Below are positions 766-54,626 of a stretch of DNA of 64,000 bases, one piece after another. This DNA is from Caldilineaceae bacterium (GTDB lineage Bacteria; Chloroflexota; Anaerolineae; Caldilineales; Caldilineaceae): positions 3,411,340-3,475,339 of the forward strand of contig OZ253474.1 of the NCBI GenBank assembly GCA_965261695.1. The letters run 5' to 3'. The translations under genes and the position numbers were made by a program. The notes under the pieces are model-generated. The model did not search any database, was not told where the DNA came from, and saw only the letters and a list, made by a program, of their open reading frames with translations. How positions within the stretch are numbered: position 1 is the first letter of the stretch; each line of letters starts with the position of its first letter.

Positions 766-978
766 ATGTCTGCGCAGACTGACGGGGATAGGCTTGCTCG
801 ATTGGAGGGGGCATACCAACATCTGGCAACCAAGGCGGACATTGAACGGTTGCAAGTCGATCTGATAAAGTGGTCTGTCGGCATAGGACTTGGAATAGCA
901 ACCATTGCATCGGCTGCATCCCGAATTTTTGGGCCTTTGCAATCTGCCCTTTCACCCGACGCAAAAAGGATCCGCTGA
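766..978 (+). CDS. small hypothetical protein (N-terminal coiled coil, hydrophobic C-terminal segment)
   Basis: ATG-initiated 70-aa ORF. LARLEGAYQHLATKADIERLQVDL is helix-like and is followed by a TM-like WSVGIGLGIATIASAASRIFG. RBS support is only modest (GGGG 751-754). No family recognised. Confidence 0.4.
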   Translation: MSAQTDGDRLARLEGAYQHLATKADIERLQVDLIKWSVGIGLGIATIASAASRIFGPLQSALSPDAKRIR

Positions 979-1070
979 ACAGGCTTCAACCGATCGCCTG
1001 CAATCCTGTAAATCCTGATTCAGACAACATCCACCCAAAAATTTGGGACAGACCCCGCAGGGACGACGCA

Positions 1071-1099
1071 TTGTCAAAAAATCCGGATGCTGCTATTCT
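1071..1099 (+). promoter_or_regulatory. sigma70-like promoter candidate upstream of the first Uma2 copy
   Basis: TTGTCA (1071-1076), 17-nt spacer, TATTCT (1094-1099), about 70 nt upstream of ATG 1167. Hexamer match only. Confidence 0.3.
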
Positions 1100-1166
1100 T
1101 GAGCCACGCATGGGCCTGGGACCGGGCTGGCCGCGCTTGTTCTCTGGACAGAGTCAGGAGAGCGAA

Positions 1167-2033
1167 ATGACCGAGAGCGCCGTATCGGCAACTGAATCAT
1201 CTGTGCCCCACCGGAAAACTGCGGTGACCTCCGGCGCGGTGAGGCGGGACAACGACCAGGGCGTTGCGGCCGTTCATCCGCCGCTGACGCCCGCGGATAG
1301 ACGCGTCATCGAGCAACTTGTCACCGAGGACGACACCCCCGTGGATAACCGGTTTTCCGAAAAGCAGCGCCGCCTGCTGACGACGCCCTTGTACAACTCC
1401 TGGGCCGGACCTGGCGGCGGACGCCCGTTCATGGTCGGAGCCGATGTCGGCGTCTTTCTCCACCCCCGCGAAGCGCCGCTCGTCCCCGATGTTTTCCTCA
1501 GCCTCGATGTCATAGAGATAGAGGAGCCGTGGGGCAAGGAGGGACGCAGCTACTTTATCTGGGAGTACAAAAAGGCGCCCGATGTGGTGATCGAGGTGGT
1601 GTCAAACGAGAAAGGCGCTGAGGTTGCGTCCAAGTTCGCTGGCTACGCCCGCTTCGGCGTCCCCTGTTACGTGATATTCGACCCCTTGACGCTGGTGCAG
1701 AAGGAACCGGTACGGGCCTATCAACGTACGCCGGCCGGGGATTACAGGCCGTGCGCCTACGACATACTACCGGGAATTGGGCTGGGTCTGCGGCTGTGGC
1801 GGGGCGGATTCGACAATCTGCATGCAACCTGGTTGCGCTGGCTCGACGCGTCCGGCGAACTCGTTCTCACAGGTGAGGAACGCGCCGACCGGGAAAGAAG
1901 CAGAGCCGACCGGGAAAGAGACAGAGCCGACCAGGAAAGAGACAGAGCCGACCAGGAAAGAAGCAGAGCCGACAGGCTCGCAGCCCGGCTGCGCGCGCAC
2001 GGAATCTCGCCGGACAACGGCATGACGGATTAG
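1167..2033 (+). CDS. Uma2-family (DUF820) PD-(D/E)XK putative endonuclease, tandem copy 1
   Basis: ATG 1167 is preceded by AGGAG (1156-1160). The track start at 870 is an in-frame extension not shared by copies 2-5. Uma2-type motifs: PDVFLSLD, APDVVIEVVSNEKG, KFAGYARFGVPCYVIFDP. Four 21-bp (7-aa RAD[RQ]ER[SD]) repeats at 1887-1970. Confidence 0.85.
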   Translation: MTESAVSATESSVPHRKTAVTSGAVRRDNDQGVAAVHPPLTPADRRVIEQLVTEDDTPVDNRFSEKQRRLLTTPLYNSWAGPGGGRPFMVGADVGVFLHPREAPLVPDVFLSLDVIEIEEPWGKEGRSYFIWEYKKAPDVVIEVVSNEKGAEVASKFAGYARFGVPCYVIFDPLTLVQKEPVRAYQRTPAGDYRPCAYDILPGIGLGLRLWRGGFDNLHATWLRWLDASGELVLTGEERADRERSRADRERDRADQERDRADQERSRADRLAARLRAHGISPDNGMTD

Positions 2034-2100
2034 TTTTGCGTTTATTGGTTCTCAGTTGGGCGACTGGACAGGTGGAGACCTGGCAGGGGAGGCGTGCGAA

Positions 2101-2967
2101 ATGACCGAGAGCGCCGTATCGGCAACTGAATCATCTGTGCCCCACCGGAAAACTGCGGTGACCTCCGGCGCGGTGAGGCGGGACAACGACCAGGGCGTTG
2201 CGGCCGTTCATCCGCCGCTGACGCCCGCGGATAGACGCGTCATCGAGCAACTTGTCACCGAGGACGACACCCCCGTGGATAACCGGTTTTCCGAAAAGCA
2301 GCGCCGCCTGCTGACGACGCCCTTGTACAACTCCTGGGCCGGACCTGGCGGCGGACGTCCGTTCATGGTCGGAGCCGATGTCGGCGTCTTTCTGCACCCC
2401 CGCGAAGCGCCGCTCGTCCCCGATGTTTTCCTCAGCCTCGATGTCATAGAGATACAGGAGCCGTGGGGCAAGGAGGGACGCAGCTACTTTATCTGGGAGT
2501 ACAAAAAGGCGCCCGATGTGGTGATCGAGGTGGTGTCAAACGAGAAAGGCGGTGAGGTTGCGTCCAAGTTCGCTGGCTACGCCCGCTTCGGCGTCCCCTG
2601 TTACGTGATATTCGACCCCTTGACGCTGGTGCAGAAGGAACCGGTACGGGCCTATCAACGTACGCCGGCCGGGGATTACAGGCCGTGCGCCTACGACATA
2701 CTACCGGGAATTGGGCTGGGTCTGCGGCTGTGGCGGGGCGGATTCGACAATCTGCATGCAACCTGGTTGCGCTGGCTCGACGCGTCCGGCGAACTCGTTC
2801 TCACAGGTGAGGAACGCGCCGACCGGGAAAGAAGCAGAGCCGACCGGGAAAGAGACAGAGCCGACCAGGAAAGAGACAGAGCCGACCAGGAAAGAAGCAG
2901 AGCCGACAGGCTCGCAGCCCGGCTGCGCGCGCACGGAATCCCGCCGGACAACGGCATGATGGATTAG
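2101..2967 (+). CDS. Uma2-family putative endonuclease, tandem copy 2
   Basis: ATG 2101 is preceded by GGGGAGG in the conserved 67-nt spacer. Near-identical to copy 1. Four 21-bp repeats at 2821-2904. Confidence 0.85.
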   Translation: MTESAVSATESSVPHRKTAVTSGAVRRDNDQGVAAVHPPLTPADRRVIEQLVTEDDTPVDNRFSEKQRRLLTTPLYNSWAGPGGGRPFMVGADVGVFLHPREAPLVPDVFLSLDVIEIQEPWGKEGRSYFIWEYKKAPDVVIEVVSNEKGGEVASKFAGYARFGVPCYVIFDPLTLVQKEPVRAYQRTPAGDYRPCAYDILPGIGLGLRLWRGGFDNLHATWLRWLDASGELVLTGEERADRERSRADRERDRADQERDRADQERSRADRLAARLRAHGIPPDNGMMD

Positions 2968-3034
2968 TTTTGCGTTTTTTGGTTCTTAGTTGGGCGACTG
3001 GACAGGTGGAGACCTGGCAGGGGAGGGGTGCGAA

Positions 3035-3880
3035 ATGACCGAGAGCGCCGTATCGGCAACTGAATCATCTGTGCCCCACCGGAAAACTGCGGTGACCTCC
3101 GGCGCGGTGAGGCGGGACAACGACCAGGGCGTTGCGGCCGTTCATCCGCCGCTGACGCCCGCGGATAGACGCGTCATCGAGCAACTTGTCACCGAGGACG
3201 ACACCCCCGTGGATAACCGGTTTTCCGAAAAGCAGCGCCGCCTGCTGACGACGCCCTTGTACAACTCCTGGGCCGGACCTGGCGGCGGACGTCCGTTTAT
3301 GGTCGGAGCCGATGTCGGCGTCTTTCTGCACCCCCGCGAAGCGCCGCTCGTCCCCGATGTTTTCCTCAGCCTCGATGTCATAGAGATAGAGGAGCCGTGG
3401 GGCAAGGAGGGACGCAGCTACTTTATCTGGGAGTACAAAAAGGCGCCCGATGTGGTGATCGAGGTGGTGTCAAACGAGAAAGGCGCTGAGGTTGCGTCCA
3501 AGTTCGCTGGCTACGCCCGCTTCGGCGTCCCCTGTTACGTGATATTCGACCCCTTGACGCTGGTGCAGAAGGAACCGGTACGGGCCTATCAACGTACGCC
3601 GGCCGGGGATTACAGGCCGTGCGCCTACGACATACTACCGGGAATTGGGCTGGGTCTGCGGCTGTGGCGGGGCGGATTCGACAATCTGCATGCAACCTGG
3701 TTGCGCTGGCTCGACGCGTCCGGCGAACTCGTTCTCACAGGTGAGGAACGCGCCGACCGGGAAAGAAGCAGAGCCGACCGGGAAAGAGACAGAGCCGACC
3801 AGGCCGAAAGCAGAGCCGACAGGCTCGCAGCCCGGCTGCGCGCGCACGGAATCCCGCCGGACAACGGCATGACGGATTAG
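3035..3880 (+). CDS. Uma2-family putative endonuclease, tandem copy 3
   Basis: ATG 3035 with the same spacer and RBS. Three 21-bp repeats at 3755-3817. Confidence 0.85.
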   Translation: MTESAVSATESSVPHRKTAVTSGAVRRDNDQGVAAVHPPLTPADRRVIEQLVTEDDTPVDNRFSEKQRRLLTTPLYNSWAGPGGGRPFMVGADVGVFLHPREAPLVPDVFLSLDVIEIEEPWGKEGRSYFIWEYKKAPDVVIEVVSNEKGAEVASKFAGYARFGVPCYVIFDPLTLVQKEPVRAYQRTPAGDYRPCAYDILPGIGLGLRLWRGGFDNLHATWLRWLDASGELVLTGEERADRERSRADRERDRADQAESRADRLAARLRAHGIPPDNGMTD

Positions 3881-3947
3881 TTTTGCGTTTTTTGGTTCTT
3901 AGTTGGGCGACTGGACAGGTGGAGACCTGGCAGGGGAGGGGTGCGAA

Positions 3948-4856
3948 ATGACCGAGAGCGCCGTATCGGCAACTGAATCATCTGTGCCCCACCGGAAAAC
4001 TGCGGTGACCTCCGGCGCGGTGAGGCGGGACAACGACCAGGGCGTTGCGGCCGTTCATCCGCCGCTGACGCCCGCGGATAGACGCGTCATCGAGCAACTT
4101 GTCACCGAGGACGACACCCCCGTGGATAACCGGTTTTCCGAAAAGCAGCGCCGCCTGCTGACGACGCCCTTGTACAACTCCTGGGCCGGACCTGGCGGCG
4201 GACGTCCGTTCATGGTCGGAGCCGATGTCGGCGTCTTTCTGCACCCCCGCGAAGCGCCGCTCGTCCCCGATGTTTTCCTCAGCCTCGATGTCATAGAGAT
4301 ACAGGAGCCGTGGGGCAAGGAGGGACGCAGCTACTTTATCTGGGAGTACAAAAAGGCGCCCGATGTGGTGATCGAGGTGGTGTCAAACGAGAAAGGCGGT
4401 GAGGTTGCGTCCAAGTTCGCTGGCTACGCCCGCTTCGGCGTCCCCTGTTACGTGATATTCGACCCCTTGACGCTGCTGCAGAAGGAACCGGTACGGGCCT
4501 ATCAACGTACGCCGGCCGGGGATTACAGGCCGTGCGCCTACGACATACTACCGGGAATTGGGCTGGGTCTGCGGCTGTGGCGGGGCGGATTCGACAATCT
4601 GCATGCAACCTGGTTGCGCTGGCTCGACGCGTCCGGCGAACTCGTTCTCACAGGTGAGGAACGCGCCGACCGGGAAAGAAGCAGAGCCGACCAGGAAAGA
4701 AGCAGAGCCGACCAGGCCGAAAGCAGAGCCGACCAGGAAAGAAGCAAAGCCGACCAGGAAAGAAGCAGAGCCGACCAGGAAAGAAGCAGAGCCGACAGGC
4801 TCGCAGCCCGGCTGCGCGCGCACGGAATCCCGCCGGACAACGGCATGACGGATTAG
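3948..4856 (+). CDS. Uma2-family putative endonuclease, tandem copy 4
   Basis: ATG 3948 with the same spacer and RBS. Six 21-bp repeats at 4668-4793. Confidence 0.85.
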   Translation: MTESAVSATESSVPHRKTAVTSGAVRRDNDQGVAAVHPPLTPADRRVIEQLVTEDDTPVDNRFSEKQRRLLTTPLYNSWAGPGGGRPFMVGADVGVFLHPREAPLVPDVFLSLDVIEIQEPWGKEGRSYFIWEYKKAPDVVIEVVSNEKGGEVASKFAGYARFGVPCYVIFDPLTLLQKEPVRAYQRTPAGDYRPCAYDILPGIGLGLRLWRGGFDNLHATWLRWLDASGELVLTGEERADRERSRADQERSRADQAESRADQERSKADQERSRADQERSRADRLAARLRAHGIPPDNGMTD

Positions 4857-4923
4857 TTTTGCGTTTATTGGTTCTTAGTTGGGCGACTGGACAGGTGGAG
4901 ACCTGGCAGGGGAGGCGTGCGAA

Positions 4924-5811
4924 ATGACCGAGAGCGCCGTATCGGCAACTGAATCATCTGTGCCCCACCGGAAAACTGCGGTGACCTCCGGCGCGGTGAG
5001 GCGGGACAACGACCAGGGCGTTGCGGCCGTTCATCCGCCGCTGACGCCCGCGGATAGACGCGTCATCGAGCAACTTGTCACCGAGGACGACACCCCCGTG
5101 GATAACCGGTTTTCCGAAAAGCAGCGCCGCCTGCTGACGACGCCCTTGTACAACTCCTGGGCCGGACCTGGCGGCGGACGTCCGTTCATGGTCGGAGCCG
5201 ATGTCGGCGTCTTTCTGCACCCCCGCGAAGCGCCGCTCGTCCCCGATGTTTTCCTCAGCCTCGATGTCATAGAGATACAGGAGCCGTGGGGCAAGGAGGG
5301 ACGCAGCTACTTTATCTGGGAGTACAAAAAGGCGCCCGATGTGGTGATCGAGGTGGTGTCAAACGAGAAAGGCGCTGAGGTTGCGTCCAAGTTCGCTGGC
5401 TACGCCCGCTTCGGCGTCCCCTGTTACGTGATATTCGACCCCTTGACGCTGGTGCAGAAGGAACCGGTACGGGCCTATCAACGTACGCCGGCCGGGGATT
5501 ACAGGCCGTGCGCCTACGACATACTACCGGGAATTGGGCTGGGTCTGCGGCTGTGGCGGGGCGGATTCGACAATCTGCATGCAACCTGGTTGCGCTGGCT
5601 CGACGCGTCCGGCGAACTCGTTCTCACAGGTGAGGAACGCGCCGACCGGGAAAGAAGCAGAGCCGACCGGGAAAGAGACAGAGCCGACCAGGAAAGAAGC
5701 AGAGCCGACCAGGAAAGAAGCAGAGCCGACCAGGAAAGAAGCAGAGCCGACAGGCTCGCAGCCCGGCTGCGCGCGCACGGAATCCCGCCGGACAACGGCA
5801 TGACGGATTAG
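4924..5811 (+). CDS. Uma2-family putative endonuclease, tandem copy 5
   Basis: ATG 4924 with the same spacer and RBS. Five 21-bp repeats at 5644-5748. Confidence 0.85.
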   Translation: MTESAVSATESSVPHRKTAVTSGAVRRDNDQGVAAVHPPLTPADRRVIEQLVTEDDTPVDNRFSEKQRRLLTTPLYNSWAGPGGGRPFMVGADVGVFLHPREAPLVPDVFLSLDVIEIQEPWGKEGRSYFIWEYKKAPDVVIEVVSNEKGAEVASKFAGYARFGVPCYVIFDPLTLVQKEPVRAYQRTPAGDYRPCAYDILPGIGLGLRLWRGGFDNLHATWLRWLDASGELVLTGEERADRERSRADRERDRADQERSRADQERSRADQERSRADRLAARLRAHGIPPDNGMTD

Positions 5812-5972
5812 TTTTGCGTTTTTTGGTTCTTAGTTGGGCGACTGGACAGGCTCGGTTTACCAGCATGGATCGGTTTGGCTGTTCAATTGACTACATTGTT
5901 GCGCTAAACGCACAAGAGAATTAGAGCGGAGAAAGTACTGCCCGCCATAGCCTATGCCTTGACGGAGAAAGT

Positions 5973-7010
5973 GTGAGCAGAAATATGCAGGCGCTTGAAG
6001 AATTGCAAAGCCGCGCGCAAGAGGAGTTGGCCGCAACCGACACCGTCGAAGCCACCGAGTCCTGGTTCCGGGACTATCTGGGGCGCAATGGGGCGCTCAC
6101 CGATTTTCTGCGGGGATTGAGCGAGCTTTCGCGCGCCGAGCGCCCGGCGGCCGGCCGCGCCGGCAATGAACTGAAAAATCTACTGGAAGCCGCCCTGCAC
6201 ACCCGCCAGGAGGCGATCCGCCAGCAGGAGATGGTGCAGACGCTGGCCGCCGAGGGCGTGGACGTAACCCTGCCGGGGCGCAAGCCGAACCTGGGCAAGA
6301 TCCATCCGAGCAATCAGACGCTGCGCGAGATTGCGCAGATATTCGGCCAGATGGGCTTCCAGGTTTACGACGCGCCGGAGGTCGAAACCGACGAAAACAA
6401 CTTTGGCCTGCTCAACATCCCGCAGGGACATCCCGCCCGCGATATGTGGGATACATTCTACACAACGACGCCCGGCGTGATCCTGCGCACCCACACCAGC
6501 CCCGGCCAGATCCACGCGATGCGGGAGTACTGCCCCGAGCCGATTCGGGTGATTCTGCCGGGCAAATGTTACCGCCATGAGGACGTCAGCGCCCGCTACG
6601 ACATGATGTTCCACCAGGTGGAGGGGCTGGTCGTCGGCCACAACGTAACCTTCAGCGACCTGAAGGGCACGCTCGTGAACTTCGCCAACCAGATGTTCGG
6701 CCAGGGGCGCAAGCTGCGCTTCCGCAAGAGCTATTTCCCCTTCACCGAGCCTAGTGTCGAGGTGGACGCCGGCTGCGTTCTGTGCGCAGCCGAGGGCTGC
6801 CGCATCTGCAAGCAGACCGGCTGGTTGGAGATTTTAGGCGCGGGGATGGTGCATCCGATCGTGCTGCAAAACGGCGGCTACGACCCGTCTGTCTTCAGCG
6901 GCTTCGCCTTCGGCATGGGGCCGGAGCGGATCGCAATGCTCAAGTACGGCATTGACGACATCCGCTACTTTTTCACCAATGACGTGCGCTTCCTCGAACG
7001 GGTCGGATGA
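5973..7010 (+). CDS. pheS: phenylalanine--tRNA ligase alpha subunit
   Basis: GTG 5973 lies 5 nt after GGAG (alternative ATG at 5985). Class II aaRS motifs are present: HPARDMWDTFY, FRKSYFPFTEPSVEVD, GMVHP, FGMGPERIAMLKYGIDDIR. Confidence 0.95.
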   Translation: MSRNMQALEELQSRAQEELAATDTVEATESWFRDYLGRNGALTDFLRGLSELSRAERPAAGRAGNELKNLLEAALHTRQEAIRQQEMVQTLAAEGVDVTLPGRKPNLGKIHPSNQTLREIAQIFGQMGFQVYDAPEVETDENNFGLLNIPQGHPARDMWDTFYTTTPGVILRTHTSPGQIHAMREYCPEPIRVILPGKCYRHEDVSARYDMMFHQVEGLVVGHNVTFSDLKGTLVNFANQMFGQGRKLRFRKSYFPFTEPSVEVDAGCVLCAAEGCRICKQTGWLEILGAGMVHPIVLQNGGYDPSVFSGFAFGMGPERIAMLKYGIDDIRYFFTNDVRFLERVG

Positions 7011-15418: not shown

Positions 15419-15589
15419 GTCTTCCTCCTTGTCCTGGCACTGCGGTTGATATTGTTGTGCGGTTGAGGGGCTCCTTTGGTTTCTGACGCAGCCATGGGGA
15501 AGAGCATATTTACAGCTCGAGATTTGTCAAAGCTGGGTCCCACCTGGCAGTTGCCCAGTTTGTCGTGAGGGAGACACCTCCGTCAATTC

Positions 15590-16782
15590 GGGTGCATCCC
15601 AAATTTTTGGGGAACGTGCCCCTGCGATCGCGGGCCTCTCGCCCGCAGCCGGTTTCGGCTTCCGCGCCTGTTGAAGAACTGCTCCAATGGGTGACAGATG
15701 CAGGTTGCCTGTCGCCAGAATCGAACCGCAACTCGCCTGATTCTCGTCAACGAAGACGCCGCCTGAGCCGCTGCCATCAACTATCTCCAGCATACTGACT
15801 GCCTGAACCACAGTTCAGACAACTGCTGCGAGTCCTGCCCTTCAGAGCAACTCAGAAACGCTCCCCCATTCTGAGATACACCCTGGAATCTCCAGCAACT
15901 GCAAACGCCCCGCTTTTGTAGTACACTTGTGCGCAAGACGAACGAGCGCAGCCGCGGCCCTGCCGCAACTGCATACCGATTTCAAATGAATGCCATGCCA
16001 TTTTGCCCATCCTGCCCCCTGCGCGCGGGAGCCACGCGCAGCAAACTGCTGCCCTCCCTGCCCAGCCGCTGCTGCAACAACCCGTTGCCCGCCATTCCCG
16101 AAAAAACTATTTTGGGACGAAGAATGACGAGAAATGACGAGAAATGACGAAAAATGACGAAAGAACACGCCCAAACGTGCCCGAACGTATCCGAACACGA
16201 AAAAAAAAAATTGGCGCGACTAAACGCGACTAAACGCGACCAAACGCGACTAAACGCGACTTGGCGCGTTCGCAAACGCTCGCAAACGCTCGCAAACGCT
16301 CGTAACTGCTTGCAAACGCTCGTAAACGCTCGTAACTGCCTACACTGGCACACCTGACCTGCGCGCCCCGCACGTCGCCTGCAAGCGGCCCATAACCCCG
16401 GGCGCAGCCGAAATTCCGCCCCCATTCTTGGATTCATCCGCCCGAGGCGCCGATAGCGGAACTTCAACAGTGTCTCAACGAACGCCACTCTGTGCGTTTT
16501 GTGCGTTTTCAGTACTCAGAGTGATTGCGATGCTGTAAATCGTGGTGCGCGGGCGGATAAAACGCAGCCCAACTGCTCAGCGCCGACGCGCGCTTCCCTT
16601 GCATGGGTGCATCCCAGTTTTTCGTTAAGATGAAAGGGCGTAGACGCGGAGAAGGGGTTGAGAAGACCAAAGGGGATCCCCTGGCGATGCCTGCACTCCG
16701 CACGACTCCGCTCAGTCAAACCTGGCCTCAACTGCTTCAACCGCTTGGCTTTACTCGACGCACAATAATCTGGGATGCACCC
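15590..16782. mobile_element. non-autonomous TIR transposable element, copy 1 (1,193 bp, no conserved ORF)
   Basis: Perfect 12-bp TIRs GGGTGCATCCCA (15590-15601) and TGGGATGCACCC (16771-16782). 8-bp direct target duplication GTCAATTC (15582-15589 and 16783-16790). A second copy elsewhere in the window has a different TSD. Confidence 0.9.
16116..16340. repeat. about 22 consecutive 10-bp-phased short direct repeats (four iteron types) around an A11 run, inside element copy 1
   Basis: 5x GACGA(A/G)(A/G)AAT. 4x C(A/G)(C/T)G(C/T/A)-CC(A/G)AA-type units. A11 at 16200-16210. 5x CGCGAC(T/C)AAA. 7x CGCT-CG(C/T)AA(A/C)-type units. All lie in one 10-bp register. Confidence 0.9.
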
Positions 16783-16797
16783 GTCAATTCCGATGCC

Positions 16798-16826
16798 TTG
16801 CCAACGCGTTGTCGGTCAGCTACACT
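16798..16826 (+). promoter_or_regulatory. sigma70-like promoter candidate for the MoxR/VWA pair
   Basis: TTGCCA (16798-16803), 17-nt spacer, TACACT (16821-16826), about 100 nt upstream of ATG 16929. Hexamer match only. Confidence 0.4.
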
Positions 16827-16928: not shown

Positions 16929-17921
<993 letters not shown>

Positions 17922-21235: not shown

Positions 21236-21279
21236 TCAACCTCGATATACCGGTGCAAAGTGGTTGGCTGCTCTTGTCA

Positions 21280-21657
21280 CCACTGACCACTGACCACTGA
21301 CCACCGACCACCGACCACTGACCACCGACCACCGACCACCGACCACTGACCACTGACCACCGACCACCGACCACTGACCACTGACCACAGGCCACTGACC
21401 ACTGACCACTGACCACTGACCACTGACCACTGACCACTGACCACTGACCACTGACCACTGACCACTGACCACTGACCACCGACCACCGACCACCGACCAC
21501 CGACCACCGACCACCGACCACCGACCACAGGCCACTGACCACTGACCACCGACCACCGACCACCGACCACCGACCACCGACCACCGACCACTGACCACTG
21601 ACCACTGACCACTGACCACTGACCACTGACCACCGACCACTGACCACCGACCACTGC
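21280..21657. repeat. heptanucleotide tandem array, 54 units (30 CCACTGA, 22 CCACCGA, 2 CCACAGG)
   Basis: Counted unit by unit from 21280. Unit order (T=CCACTGA, C=CCACCGA, X=CCACAGG): TTTCCTCCCTTCCTTXTTTTTTTTTTTTCCCCCCCXTTCCCCCCTTTTTTCTCT. The array ends 3 nt before the AAAAGGAG RBS region of ilvE. Confidence 0.97.
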
Positions 21658-53079: not shown

Positions 53080-53094
53080 TACTTGGAAATGAAC

Positions 53095-54312
53095 GGGTGC
53101 ATCCCAAATTTTTGGGGAACGTGCCCCTGCGATCGCGGACCTCTCGCCCGCAGCCGGTTTCGGCTTGCGCGCCTGTTGAAGAACTGCTCCAATGGGTGAC
53201 AGATGCAGGTTGCCTGTCGCCAGAATCGAACCGCAGCTCGCCTGATTCTCGTCAACGAAGACGCCGCCTGAGCCGCTGCCGTCAACTGTCTCCAGCATAC
53301 TGACTGCCTGAACCATAGTTCAGACAACTGCTGCGAGTCCTGCCCTTCAAAGCAACTTAGAAACGCTCCCTCATTCCGAGATGCCCCTGGAATTCCCAGC
53401 AACTGCAAACGCCCCGCTTTTGTAGTACACTTGTGCGCAAGACGAACGAGCGCAGCCGCGGCCATGCCGCAACTGCATACCGATTTCAAATGAATACCAT
53501 GCCATTTTGCCCATCCTGCCCCCGGCGCGGGGGAGCCACGCGCAGCAAACTGCTGCCCTCCCTGCCCAGCCGCTGCCGCAACAACCCGTTGCCCGCCATT
53601 CCCGAAAAAGCCATTTTGGGACGAAGAATGACGAAGAATGACGAGAAATGACGAAAAATGACGAAAGAACACGCCCAAACGTGCCCGAACGTGTCCGAAC
53701 AAAAAAAAAATTGGCGCGACTAAACGCGACCAAACGCGACTAAACGCAACTAAACGCGACCTGGCGCGCTCGAACACGCTCGCAAACGCTCGTAACTGCA
53801 GGCAAACGCTCGTAACTGCAGGCAAACGCTCGTAACTGCAGGCAAACGCTCGTAAACGCTCGTAACTGCCTACATGGCACAGCTGACCTGCGCGCCCCGC
53901 ACGTCGCCTGCAAGCGGCCCGTAAGCCCGGGCGCAGCCGAAATTCCGCCCCCCATTCTTGGCTTCACCCGCGCGAGGCGCCGATACTGGAACTTCAACAG
54001 TGTCTCAACGAACGCCAATCTGTGCGTTTTGTGCGTTTTCAGTACTCAGAGTGATTGCGATGCTGTAAATCGTGGTGCGCGGGCGGAAAAAACGCAGCCC
54101 AACTGCTCAGCGCCGACGCGCGCTTCCCTTGCATGGGTGCATCCCAGTTTTTCGTTAAGATGAAAGGGGGTAGACGAGGAGAGGGGAATGAGAAGACCAA
54201 AGGGGATCCCCTGGCGATGCCTGCACTCCGCACGACTCCGCGCAGTCATACCTGGCCTCAACTGCTTCAACCGCTTGGCTTTACTCGACGCACAATAATC
54301 TGGGATGCACCC
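53095..54312. mobile_element. non-autonomous TIR transposable element, copy 2 (1,218 bp)
   Basis: Same 12-bp TIRs (53095-53106 and 54301-54312) and same orientation as copy 1. Its own 8-bp target duplication is AAATGAAC (53087-53094 and 54313-54320). Confidence 0.9.
53620..53870. repeat. 10-bp-phased iteron/A-tract core of element copy 2
   Basis: Same four iteron types as copy 1 around an A10 run (53701-53710). The last array is expanded by 3 copies of the 20-bp unit CAAACGCTCGTAACTGCAGG. A 3-4 nt deletion next to the A-run shifts the register between the two halves. Confidence 0.9.
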
Positions 54313-54626
54313 AAATGAACAAATACGTTGACATATTCACACCCACAGCCAGTGCCTTCCAACGAGCAAGGCACGGAATTACCCTCAGACAGATCGAGAA
54401 TATCTTTCAGGGCGAAACGATGACTTGCTGTCCAGCGTGCATCCCGGATTTGGGGCGCCCCGGTTCAACGGGTTGCGGACACCGGTCTGGATGTCCGGAT
54501 ATGTTCCCCAACTCGCGCCCGCTTTGGACCGCACCCCATGTCCAAAAAAGGGATTGATGATTCCAGGGCTATCTGATACAATTCGCTTGTCCCGGTATAT
54601 GTATTGAGAGTAGAGTTTGAGCTTTG

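Follow-up and report, generated by a model that had tools for sequence, protein, structure and literature searches.

A block of phased 10-bp repeats in the cargo of a composite non-autonomous ISKra4-type transposon, probably a compound minisatellite

We analyzed a 64,000-nucleotide stretch of a Caldilineaceae bacterium chromosome (contig OZ253474.1), referred to here as the window. Positions 16116-16340 of the window (225 bp) contain approximately 22 back-to-back 10-bp units that belong to four families and flank an A11 run, all described on the plus strand. The block opens with the F1 array (16116..16165), called by Tandem Repeats Finder (TRF) and consisting of five copies of GACGA(A/G)(A/G)AAT, the last of which is degenerate (GACGAAAGAA). 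It continues with three to four F2 units (16166..16199; CACGCCCAAA, CGTGCCCGAA, CGTATCCGAA and CACG) and the A11 run itself (16200..16210), with TTGG directly after it. The F3 array (16215..16264), identified by TRF and unit statistics, has five copies of CGCGACYAAA and ends in CGCGACTTGG. The F4 array (16265..16340) has approximately seven units of CGCTCGYAAM or TGCTTGCAAA with a 20-30-bp higher-order periodicity, and was called by TRF at periods of 10 and 30. Altogether, TRF called four period-10 arrays within the block, with scores of 35-110. The original prediction had described this region as an unbroken chain of 10-bp units, and both sequence reading and TRF agree: in this copy of the repeats, hereafter copy A, the entire chain sits on one 10-bp lattice. 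The unbroken single register is, however, limited to a small number of copies, copy A among them.

The array block is cargo of a composite non-autonomous ISKra4-type transposon. Copy A of this element spans 1,193 bp (15590..16782, plus strand) and is flanked at both ends by the same 8-mer, GTCAATTC (left TSD at 15582..15589, right TSD at 16783-16790). It begins with the plus-strand IRL GGGTGCATCCC (15590..15600), and its two ends, GGGTGCATCCC/GGGATGCACCC, match those of autonomous ISKra4-family elements in Caldilineaceae genomes. A second element on the same chromosome, copy B (1,218 bp; 53095..54312, plus strand), lies 37 kb away, is 96% identical to copy A and has a different 8-bp TSD, AAATGAAC, at 53087-53094 and 54313-54320. 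Its array block (53620..53874, plus strand) consists of five F1 units, three F2 units, A10, five F3 units and ten F4 units; two indels (4 bp and 30 bp) and point changes in units set it apart from the block of copy A. Across the copies, TSDs were constant in length at 8 bp and specific to each copy (GTCAATTC, AAATGAAC, GGTTGGTT, GAGACCTT, GCAGATTT and ATTGGGGA). The GGGTGCATCCC ends also bound autonomous elements of 1,459 bp (L019, L044, L066 and L113) with ORFs that match the ISKra4 transposase model NF033572 at 217 bits, above the cut-off of 205. The element therefore carries the family's ends, as a non-autonomous ISKra4 derivative should. Thus, the second copy, the shared ends and the autonomous relatives bear out the earlier placement of the block inside a non-autonomous transposon.

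The element is composite, since alternative ends are present in its interior. An internal IRR-like site on the plus strand (TGAGATACACCC, 2 mismatches; 15872..15883) bounds, together with IRL, a mini-unit of ~294 bp, and seven of the 10 aligned copies have it in the equivalent place, with 1-3 mismatches. Approximately 90 bp downstream of the arrays is a decayed internal right end, IRR' (TTGGATTCATCC; 16428..16439, plus strand). The homologous site is intact in two relatives, L117 and L119 (TGGGATGCACCC), and a simple relative of 922 bp, L115b, terminates at its own IRR. At the right end, a 178-bp mini-unit (16605..16782, plus strand) runs from IRL' GGGTGCATCCCAGTTTTT to IRR; short elements with the ends of this mini-unit occur on their own (L057, 250 bp; L103, 163 bp), and L026 has an IRL-cargo-IRL'-IRR layout like that of copy A. 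The element is thus built of mini-units and ~1 kb of cargo, and the observed sizes of 1,120-1,688 bp are above the miniature range of MITEs, which are usually below 300-600 bp.

We gathered further copies by translating a spurious ORF across the element, using the product in a protein database search and fetching the contigs that encoded the matches. This search returned 138 pseudo-protein matches from relatives of the element. Of the 120 matches listed, which came from ENA metagenome assemblies and Caldilineaceae-type genomes, ~100 extend across the arrays; almost all of those have F1, F3 and F4 signatures, and their unit counts differ widely. The copies are therefore many and dispersed, and they have no conserved coding capacity: the ORFs of copies A and B are not the same, and the only ORF that spans the arrays is broken by a 4-bp indel. 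A 72-aa ORF common to both copies was considered as coding cargo and rejected; its seven amino-acid changes arise from ~8 nucleotide changes, indicating that it is not under purifying selection. Rfam yielded nothing at gathering threshold in the window and, in a permissive scan of the element, a single sub-threshold match (E = 0.65). A scan of genome contigs with the terminal repeat had relatives, but no copy of this element, among the matches listed. JGI metagenomes contained no match to a 22-mer taken from the flank of the arrays, and a scan with the F1 word returned 34 contigs, none of them homologous to the element. Finally, decamer arrays were absent from the autonomous ISKra4 copies and from ~200 kb of other Caldilineaceae DNA examined.

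The original prediction had likened the block to plasmid or phage origin iterons and to parC/parS-type centromeres. Short direct-repeat blocks at one-helical-turn spacing, as in parC/parS-type sites, are indeed present: the A-run is flanked on each side by period-10 arrays with 3-7 units each. The other hallmarks of such sites are absent. Iteron origins adjoin a rep gene on a plasmid or phage, whereas the neighbors here are ordinary chromosomal genes, and no Rep, Par or consistent ORF lies in or beside the element. Iteron origins also combine DnaA boxes, an A+T-rich unwinding element and one iteron type of 17-22 bp; here, the element has no DnaA box with up to one mismatch allowed, the units are 10 bp long and of four to five types, and the sole A+T-rich stretch is the A8-A12 run. 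Similarly, centromeres adjoin a parMR or parAB operon, and at ~14 loci we found no par genes, either within the element or flanking it. The whole element had no match among 72,556 plasmids (blastn 'distant'). The iteron-word search on phages that had been proposed as a check, performed with F1, F3 and F4 arrays against IMG/VR, gave no matches or unrelated ones, with no array words in viral contigs beyond chance: those to F1 were simple repeats in giant-virus contigs, and that to F4 was a two-unit coincidence in apparent coding sequence. We conclude that the block is not a replication origin or partition site.

Both copies lie beside promoters. A host sigma70-type promoter, TTGCCA-17-TACACT (16798..16826, plus strand), starts 16 nt beyond the IRR of copy A and is upstream of an AAA/MoxR-like gene at 16929; the promoter hexamer next to copy B, TTGACA, is at 54328-54333. 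Insertions of this element family lie 15 bp upstream of promoter -35 hexamers, and of nine independent insertion sites, seven have this fixed offset. Nostocales elements that share an 18-nt end have only 7-bp STRR-type repeats, with no decamer arrays and no promoter offset. We also considered the array as a UP-like element of an internal promoter and discarded the idea, as no internal promoter is predicted.

Direct reading of 14 DNA copies revealed large differences in unit number. F1 varied from 3-8 units, F2 from 2-6 (with six in L162), F3 from 2-5 and F4, the most expandable family, from 3 to >35. In the larger set of listed matches, almost every copy has kept two or more units of each family. 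In some copies, whole [F2-A-run-F3-F4] blocks are duplicated. The A-run ranges from A8 to A12, with or without CACG, and the register across it shifts by 0-4 bp between copies; in copy B and most relatives, indels at the A-run move the right half by 1-4 bp. A comparison of one orthologous site (winB and L114) was informative. The flanks diverge by 0.5%, and the array has 0 substitutions in 205 bp and three length changes of 1, 10 and 40 bp. L159 and L162 likewise differ in unit number with unit sequence kept. Orthologous loci that differ in unit number and retain unit sequence are the mark of a minisatellite or VNTR.

The unit types, by contrast with the unit numbers, are conserved. Gaps from differing copy number made an alignment-based conservation profile of no use within the arrays, and unit-level statistics took its place. 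Unit types and their order are kept down to ~77% identity, and unit consensus and family order are unchanged between lineages with ~15-25% divergence in unique flanks. The F1 core xACGA is invariant in all 50 units examined from 10 copies, and the F3 core CGCGAC is kept in at least 34 of 37 units. In general, the GC-rich cores are near-invariant and one or two junction positions vary freely. More distant small relatives have period-10 arrays on a CTCG(T/A)AA core, ~100 bp inside a right end, indicating that the array feature is old. The original prediction had named, as what would count against it, hypervariable slippage products with no conserved unit types in further copies. Unit numbers are indeed hypervariable, but many further copies keep the same unit types, and the arrays therefore do not fit that description. 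The conservation of the cores resembles that of binding sites and exceeds what would be expected if an array consensus simply drifted neutrally.

The repeats are phased with the DNA helix. AA/TT periodicity power at ~10.1 bp was 4.1 in the array, more than in any other 225-bp window across the 64 kb (median 0.23; 99th percentile 1.1), and mono-shuffles reached at most 1.6, which puts the phasing well outside chance. This periodicity and the repeat structure substantiate the proposed 10-bp-phased direct repeats with A-tracts. We then ran the suggested curvature prediction with three dinucleotide wedge models, in which a bend is expected because every unit has an A-tract and the units recur at nearly one helical turn. 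The arrays of copies A and B were both among the top curvature peaks, and the lowest end-to-end/contour ratio of the window (0.74-0.77, compared to a median of 0.96-0.98) fell on or beside them. The predicted array bend was 27-38 degrees per 31 bp over a background median of 10-12. The claimed curvature is thus strong in all three models, with the qualification that it is mostly generic to tandem repeats of ~10 bp: random decamers in tandem gave a mean of 19-31 degrees per 31 bp, nearly as much as the 27-36 degrees of the array in the same comparison. Pure F1, F3 and F4 units had predicted bends near or above the 90th percentile of random tandem decamers. The block is therefore phased A-tract DNA, with helix-phased tracts and modeled bending over background, but its bend is not above that of random tandem decamers. 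By these models, the bend is mostly a by-product of the repeat period, and the period alone is enough to give tandem decamers the look of curved iteron DNA.

We favor, with a probability of roughly 0.6, the interpretation that the block is a slippage-driven compound decamer minisatellite in the non-coding cargo of the composite non-autonomous ISKra4-type transposon. In this model, the transposon would be mobilized in trans by an ISKra4-family transposase. It would carry four to five 10-bp families (F1 GACGARRAAT, F1b, F2 CGTGCCCGAA, F3 CGCGACYAAA and F4 CGCTCGYAAA) that probably descended from a single ancestral repeat; every family fits a decamer of an A-tract, (C/T)G and five variable nucleotides. 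The arrays would expand, contract and duplicate through replication slippage, the presumed mechanism, or unequal exchange, and length change would far outpace point substitution in the block. Any biological effect is likely to be passive, with the block acting as a less GC-rich, bent spacer at ~0.45-0.7 kb from the targeted promoter, on its upstream side. The conserved cores and family order, the retention of every family in almost all copies, the age of the array feature and the bend percentile of pure units weigh against this interpretation, and the arrays may have a selected role in protein binding or DNA architecture.

A possible, but clearly less probable, interpretation is that the arrays form a protein-binding platform. 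A small dimer or the zinc-finger N-terminal domain of the transposase would bind each unit on one face of the helix, and the resulting filament would boost mobilization of the non-autonomous element, as an enhancer or transposase sink, or modulate the neighboring promoter. ParR on parC, omega on heptads and MraZ on decamer-spaced boxes are analogues. The invariant cores, variable junctions and conserved A-tracts are consistent with such a platform, as are the AAA(C/T)G that recurs every 10 bp and is common to the families, the retention of unit types and order over ~100 copies, and the related arrays in distant small relatives. The element adjoins promoters in a fixed orientation, and the 9-mer AACGTGCCC is common to the sub-terminal IRL region and F2 (chance expectation ~0.03). 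However, the element encodes no candidate binding protein, and the four to five distinct cores would demand degenerate recognition or several proteins. Moreover, the autonomous IS copies have no arrays, indicating that the transposase does not need them. A platform also sits poorly with arrays of 2 to >35 units with free phase across the A-run, with the loss of F4 from L115b, whose ends are intact, and with the ~450-700 bp that separate the arrays of the composite from the targeted promoter. A broader proposal, which we consider only tentatively, is that this is a promoter-targeting ISKra4-type family of Caldilineaceae-type Chloroflexota in which the conserved multi-family arrays of the non-autonomous derivatives would serve as a portable protein-binding or architectural module, either a transposition enhancer with which the MITE outcompetes its parent for transposase or a bent insulator or regulatory platform placed upstream of host promoters.

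It is doubtful that the block is an architectural aid to synapsis. Such a block, bent and in the middle of the element, would occupy the apex of a plectonemic supercoil and bring the ends together for the transposase, much as the strong gyrase site in the middle of phage Mu does. Aid in pairing distant ends would presumably matter most to a long non-autonomous element, a bend is predicted for the block, and the block is near-central in all composite copies, with arms of ~526 bp and ~440 bp. In simpler ancestral forms, however, it is off-centre: the arms are ~526 and 220 bp in L115b and ~243 and 107 bp in the small relative L118. In addition, the size of the bend is typical of any tandem decamer, and with a 2-4-fold variation in array length, the apex does not stay at one position. 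Still less probable is a function in RNA, in which a transcript of the block, of its minus strand for instance, would act through its repeat structure or would titrate an RNA-binding protein as a sponge. The minus strand has a predicted fold of -86.6 kcal/mol (z = -4.7 relative to shuffles) with G-U pairing between F4 or F3 units, but this stability follows trivially from self-pairing units and the plus strand has a z of only -1.7. Furthermore, the block matches no Rfam family, the element has no promoter-like site inside, and variable unit number would destroy any fixed structure. Finally, we regard plasmid- or phage-type iterons or parC/parS-type repeats for replication or partition as barely credible: the direct 10-bp repeats in blocks of about five flanking an A-rich run may formally resemble R1 parC and A+T-rich iteron origins, but transposon ends and TSDs flank the block, it occurs twice in 37 kb and ~100 times in related chromosomes, and neither iteron number nor the phase between the halves is constrained.

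If the block is only a minisatellite, it is an unusually elaborate and orderly compound VNTR carried by a bacterial transposon. Should its cores be read by protein, it would be a natural system that spreads a cooperative binding platform to many promoters, and if the portable-module proposal is true, a bacterial counterpart of the enhancer and insulator modules on eukaryotic transposable elements. The fixed promoter offset may matter more than the arrays, as a potentially new case of promoter-directed 'safe-haven' targeting in bacteria. A caution also follows: origin- or centromere-like readings of decamer arrays need co-located genes or binding data.

Among known systems, the element shares with ISKra4-family insertion sequences GGG-starting terminal repeats, an 8-bp TSD and the same 11-nt ends, and differs in having no transposase, a length of 1.2 kb, non-coding cargo of ~1 kb and several alternative ends in its interior. 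Phased A-tracts are familiar from kinetoplast-type bends and the curved sequences upstream of promoters. The block resembles them in its A2-A5 tracts every ~10 bp on one strand and in its predicted bending, with a path that should be superhelical rather than planar because the period is exactly 10.0 bp and not 10.5; unlike upstream curved promoter DNA, it lies >450 bp from the nearest predicted promoter. In ParR-bound parC, plasmid R1 has 2 x 5 repeats of 11 bp and pSK41 has contiguous 10-bp-based repeats. By analogy, the block would be similar to parC and iteron origins in its direct repeats of about one helical turn, its approximately five-unit blocks on both sides and its predicted bent or superhelical DNA. 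Those sites have one core, whereas the block has several unrelated cores in free copy number, with no adjacent parMR or rep, and is found inside a multi-copy transposon and not on a plasmid or phage.

The closest parallels are repeats that contain tandem modules. Pneumococcal BOX elements (boxA-boxB(n)-boxC), as described by Croucher et al. 2011 (PMC3049150), are modular MITE-like repeats in which the number of tandem internal modules varies by locus and strain, with longer arrays varying more, and they can influence expression of adjacent genes. The element described here is likewise modular and MITE-like with a variable-number tandem internal module. In that account, however, boxB units are ~45 bp and thought to act through RNA folding, compared to 10-bp units here, and BOX is presented with none of the helical-period phasing, multiple unit families or A-run of our block. 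BrickBuilt, a Porphyromonas gingivalis MITE, is described by Klein et al. 2015 (PMC4596501) as a non-autonomous, inverted-repeat-bounded, multi-copy element, always intergenic and near neighboring genes, with a body of spacer-less tandem minisatellite in variable copy number and demonstrated promoter activity. Our element is also non-autonomous, multi-copy and bounded by inverted repeats, with a variable tandem minisatellite. BrickBuilt has a single family of 23-nt units and promoter activity, whereas the element here surrounds its A-run with 10-nt units of four to five families, always in the same order, and has no promoter predicted inside; the parent IS family and host phylum differ as well. 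The original claim that the block has no described equivalent was therefore too strong, since MITEs with internal variable tandem arrays such as BrickBuilt and BOX have already been described. Even so, four or five decamer families linked in one chain make an unusual variant of that design.

The sequence at 16116-16340 is a chain of 10-bp units, as the original prediction had described it. It opens with GACGA(A/G)(A/G)AAT five times over (F1) and three to four units resembling CACGCCCAAA/CGTGCCCGAA (F2). An A11 run, which occupies exactly 16200-16210, separates these from five copies of CGCGACYAAA (F3) and about seven of CGCTCGYAAM/TGCTTGCAAA (F4), and every unit falls on a single 10-bp lattice. 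Tandem Repeats Finder reported four adjoining period-10 arrays in this 225-bp block and the same four at 53620-53865; the array words have no other occurrence elsewhere in the 64-kb window. Such phasing far exceeds chance: at ~10.1 bp, the power of the AA/TT periodicity was 4.1, the highest among all 225-bp windows of the 64 kb (median 0.23, 99th percentile 1.1, shuffles ≤1.6), and the second array ranked next. Folded as RNA, the array's minus strand (16100-16350) is far more stable than shuffled sequences (z = -4.7), with repeat units forming G-U pairs with one another, which we judge a trivial consequence of the repeats.

The block lies within a 1,193-bp repeat (copy A, 15590-16782) whose second copy (copy B, 53095-54312) is 96% identical. 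Both end in GGGTGCATCCC/GGGATGCACCC and are flanked by 8-bp direct duplications that are different for each (GTCAATTC and AAATGAAC). A terminal-repeat scan of species-representative genomes found matching ends in assemblies of Caldilineaceae and other Chloroflexota; among the matches listed, such ends bound 1,459-bp elements with two overlapping ORFs that match the ISKra4-family transposase model NF033572 (217 bits, curated cut-off 205), and also short derivatives (163-250 bp). A longer one, of 1,061 bp (contig L026, 2801-3861), carries a protein-coding ORF as cargo and shares the window element's layout, IRL-cargo-IRL'-IRR (left and right terminal inverted repeats, with primes for internal end-like sites). 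In an autonomous ISKra4-type element (L019, 1318-2671) a 123-aa zinc-finger N-terminal ORF overlaps a 345-aa catalytic ORF; two overlapping transposase ORFs likewise occur in L044, L066 and L113, an arrangement that may reflect a frameshift or a gene disruption.

No ORF is consistent across the window element's copies A and B, whose reading frames differ: a 4-bp indel disrupts the sole ORF spanning the array, and changes in a 72-aa ORF common to both copies are almost all non-synonymous. Rfam searches of window and element gave no match at the gathering threshold and one below it (E = 0.65). Internally we recognized an IRR-like site at 15872-15883 (element ~283-294), a second right end, IRR', at 16428-16439 (element ~839-850; decayed in the window, intact in L117 and L119), a 165-bp spacer, and a 178-bp IRL'-IRR mini-unit with an IRL-like site at 16605-16615. 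The element is an accretion of several pieces and probably grew by successive downstream right ends or by mini-unit fusion; this layout places the arrays in non-coding cargo, ~90 bp inside the old right end. Downstream of copy B, at a distance of 120 bp, there is a solitary degenerate end, GCGTGCATCCCGGATTTGGGG (54435-54445), with no partner within 2.5 kb.

DNA-pattern scans recovered no further copies of the array element among the matches listed. Relatives were instead collected at the protein level, where the query was a spurious 249-aa translation running across copy B. It yielded 138 pseudo-proteins (35-94% identity), nearly all encoded in long-read assemblies at ENA, and their contigs supplied another 12 copies as DNA, 77-94% identical. 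Family order was identical in these copies, F1, F2, A-run, F3, F4, with an additional F1b after F1 in one lineage; the exception, L115b, is without F4. In unit statistics from 10 copies the GC-rich cores were nearly invariant (xACGA in 50/50 F1 units, CGCGAC in at least 34/37 F3 units), 1-2 junction positions were free and the A-tracts were conserved. Because F1, F3 and F4 peptide signatures occur in essentially all ~100 array-spanning pseudo-proteins among the 120 listed of the 138, the arrays are not slippage products devoid of conserved unit types, although unit numbers are hypervariable (F1 3-8, F2 2-6, F3 2-5, F4 3 to >35).

L159, L161 and L162 contain duplications of the entire [F2-A-run-F3-F4] block. 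The length of the A-run differs between copies (A8-A12) and CACG is present or absent, so that the left and right halves shift by 0-4 bp in register; the single unbroken register originally proposed holds for copy A and a few others but not elsewhere. In a sister genome (L114), the site orthologous to copy B has flanks that differ by 0.5% (27 substitutions in 5,592 bp) and an array with 0 substitutions in 205 aligned bases; the array has changed in length three times, by 1, 10 and 40 bp. This is classic VNTR behavior, and the length changes argue against architectures that need a fixed site number or phase.

With a probability of roughly 0.6, we favor reading the block as a compound decamer minisatellite that is carried as cargo by a composite, non-autonomous transposon derived from ISKra4. 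Slippage during replication, or else unequal exchange, would have created it, from unit families that presumably share common descent, and would keep resizing it. Its period would be the main cause of its intrinsic bend, it would have no replication or partition role and probably no specific binding, and any effect would be that of a passive bent, less GC-rich spacer.

The main rival, that the arrays are a protein-binding or architectural platform, we regard as possible but distinctly less probable. We retain it because conservation exceeds what is expected of a freely drifting array: unit consensus and order are unchanged across lineages that differ by 15-25% in unique cargo. Distant small relatives, moreover, have arrays of period 10 built on a CTCG(T/A)AA core ~100-125 bp inside an IRR'-like end. 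One (L118_rc, 731-1297) has an IRL-like start, 17 such units and five copies of a 9-bp unit, TACGAACGC; another (L116, 3900-4620) comprises two tandem ~357-bp copies with 4-5 units each. Both terminate in 'GCCCCCATTC.GG.CTGCAC', resembling the internal IRR'. Decamer arrays occur neither in autonomous ISKra4 copies nor in ~200 kb of further Caldilineaceae DNA. However, concerted evolution within arrays, together with recent descent from a small set of master copies, can give much of this pattern without selection.

In three dinucleotide wedge models (Bolshoy-Trifonov, De Santis and AA-wedge), both window arrays were among the top peaks, and the window's lowest end-to-end/contour ratio fell on or beside them (0.74-0.77 versus a median of 0.96-0.98). 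Predicted bend per 31 bp was 27-36 degrees for the real array and 14-17 degrees for non-repetitive shuffles; same-composition random decamers in tandem gave means of 19-31 degrees (sd 13-19). The proposal of curved DNA thus stands as to strong predicted curvature at both arrays, but most of that bend would be a generic result of a period near the helical repeat, and by itself it cannot count as evidence of selection. A-tracts probably contribute something, since pure F1, F3 and F4 tandems were predicted to bend near or above the 90th percentile of random tandem decamers. That the arrays aid synapsis at a supercoil apex seems to us improbable.

A replicon origin or partition site, the role first suggested, is effectively ruled out: transposon ends bound the block, which is present in two copies within 37 kb and in ~100 across related chromosomes. 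The element does not qualify as an iteron origin or a parC/parS centromere, with no rep, par or other conserved gene in or beside it at any locus examined, no DnaA box, no plasmid similarity, and no meaningful match to the array words in viral contigs.

At 7 of 9 independent array-element sites, IRR is followed by the 8-bp target-site duplication and, after 7 nt, by a hexamer of the TTGACA type that resembles a -35; a -10 element usually comes 17 nt later: TTGCCA-17-TACACT at copy A, TTGCAA-17-TATCCT at L115a, TTGCAT-17-TAAGAT at L118, TTGACT-17-TAAAAT at L119 and TTGACA-17-TACGAT at L161. The survey covered window 16783-16826 and 54313-54333, contigs L115, L116, L118, L119 and L161, and 41 other GC-rich ISKra4-type ends, autonomous ones included, in L006-L113. 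Of these 41 ends, 12 had a TTGACA match of 5/6 or better that starts at outward position 16-17; counts at all remaining positions were 0-2. The promoter-facing end of array elements is always IRR, and the downstream gene is usually co-oriented. On L115 (reverse complement), an older simple 922-bp element with its own IRR (2144-3065) lies back to back with a 1,178-bp composite (3074-4251) at one promoter-proximal site; the later insertion duplicated GGTTGGTT beside the earlier element, pointing to repeated use of one target. From the fixed offset and this double insertion, the family appears to target a fixed position, ~-51, upstream of putative sigma70-type promoters. Nostocales sequences with the same 18-nt end showed no promoter offset. 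We found no description of such targeting in the literature searched, and it may be more interesting than the arrays themselves.

Other repeats were met along the way. A GC-rich non-coding module, unrelated to the element, recurs in differing gene contexts on JGI metagenome contigs, mostly from sample Ga0326597 (L123, L126, L130, L132, L133, L135, L136, L138, L139, L142, L150, L152, L154). It has three copies of GACGAGAAAT, a conserved ~80-bp spacer and ~8 copies of an 11-bp unit, GACGAGTTTCG, with additional short arrays upstream (GCGTACATTT and CGGTCGACAAT); it is a second multi-family short-period array system, with the GACGA word in common with the block. F1-like arrays (GACGAGAAAT or GACGAAAAAT, 4-6 units) lie just upstream of genes on giant-virus-like, low-GC contigs (L144, L146, L147/L156 and L155, the last from a 330,611-bp UViG) and are probably convergent simple repeats. 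In the window, 54 tandem ACCACTG heptamers (21279-21656; TRF score 574) downstream of a peptidase M14 gene are reminiscent of cyanobacterial STRR-type arrays, and at 870-5982 five tandem units of ~934 bp, 97-99% identical with one ~300-aa ORF each, close with 3-6 units of a 21-bp repeat, GCCGACCAGGAAAGAAGCAGA.

The claim that the block has no described equivalent goes too far. The closest described systems are the BrickBuilt MITE of P. gingivalis, whose body is a 23-nt minisatellite (PMC4596501), and the pneumococcal BOX element, boxA-boxB(n)-boxC, in which boxB number differs between strains (PMC3049150). The present case differs from both: four to five families of decamers keep a fixed order on either side of an A-run, the period is one helical turn, and the parent is an ISKra4 element in Chloroflexota.
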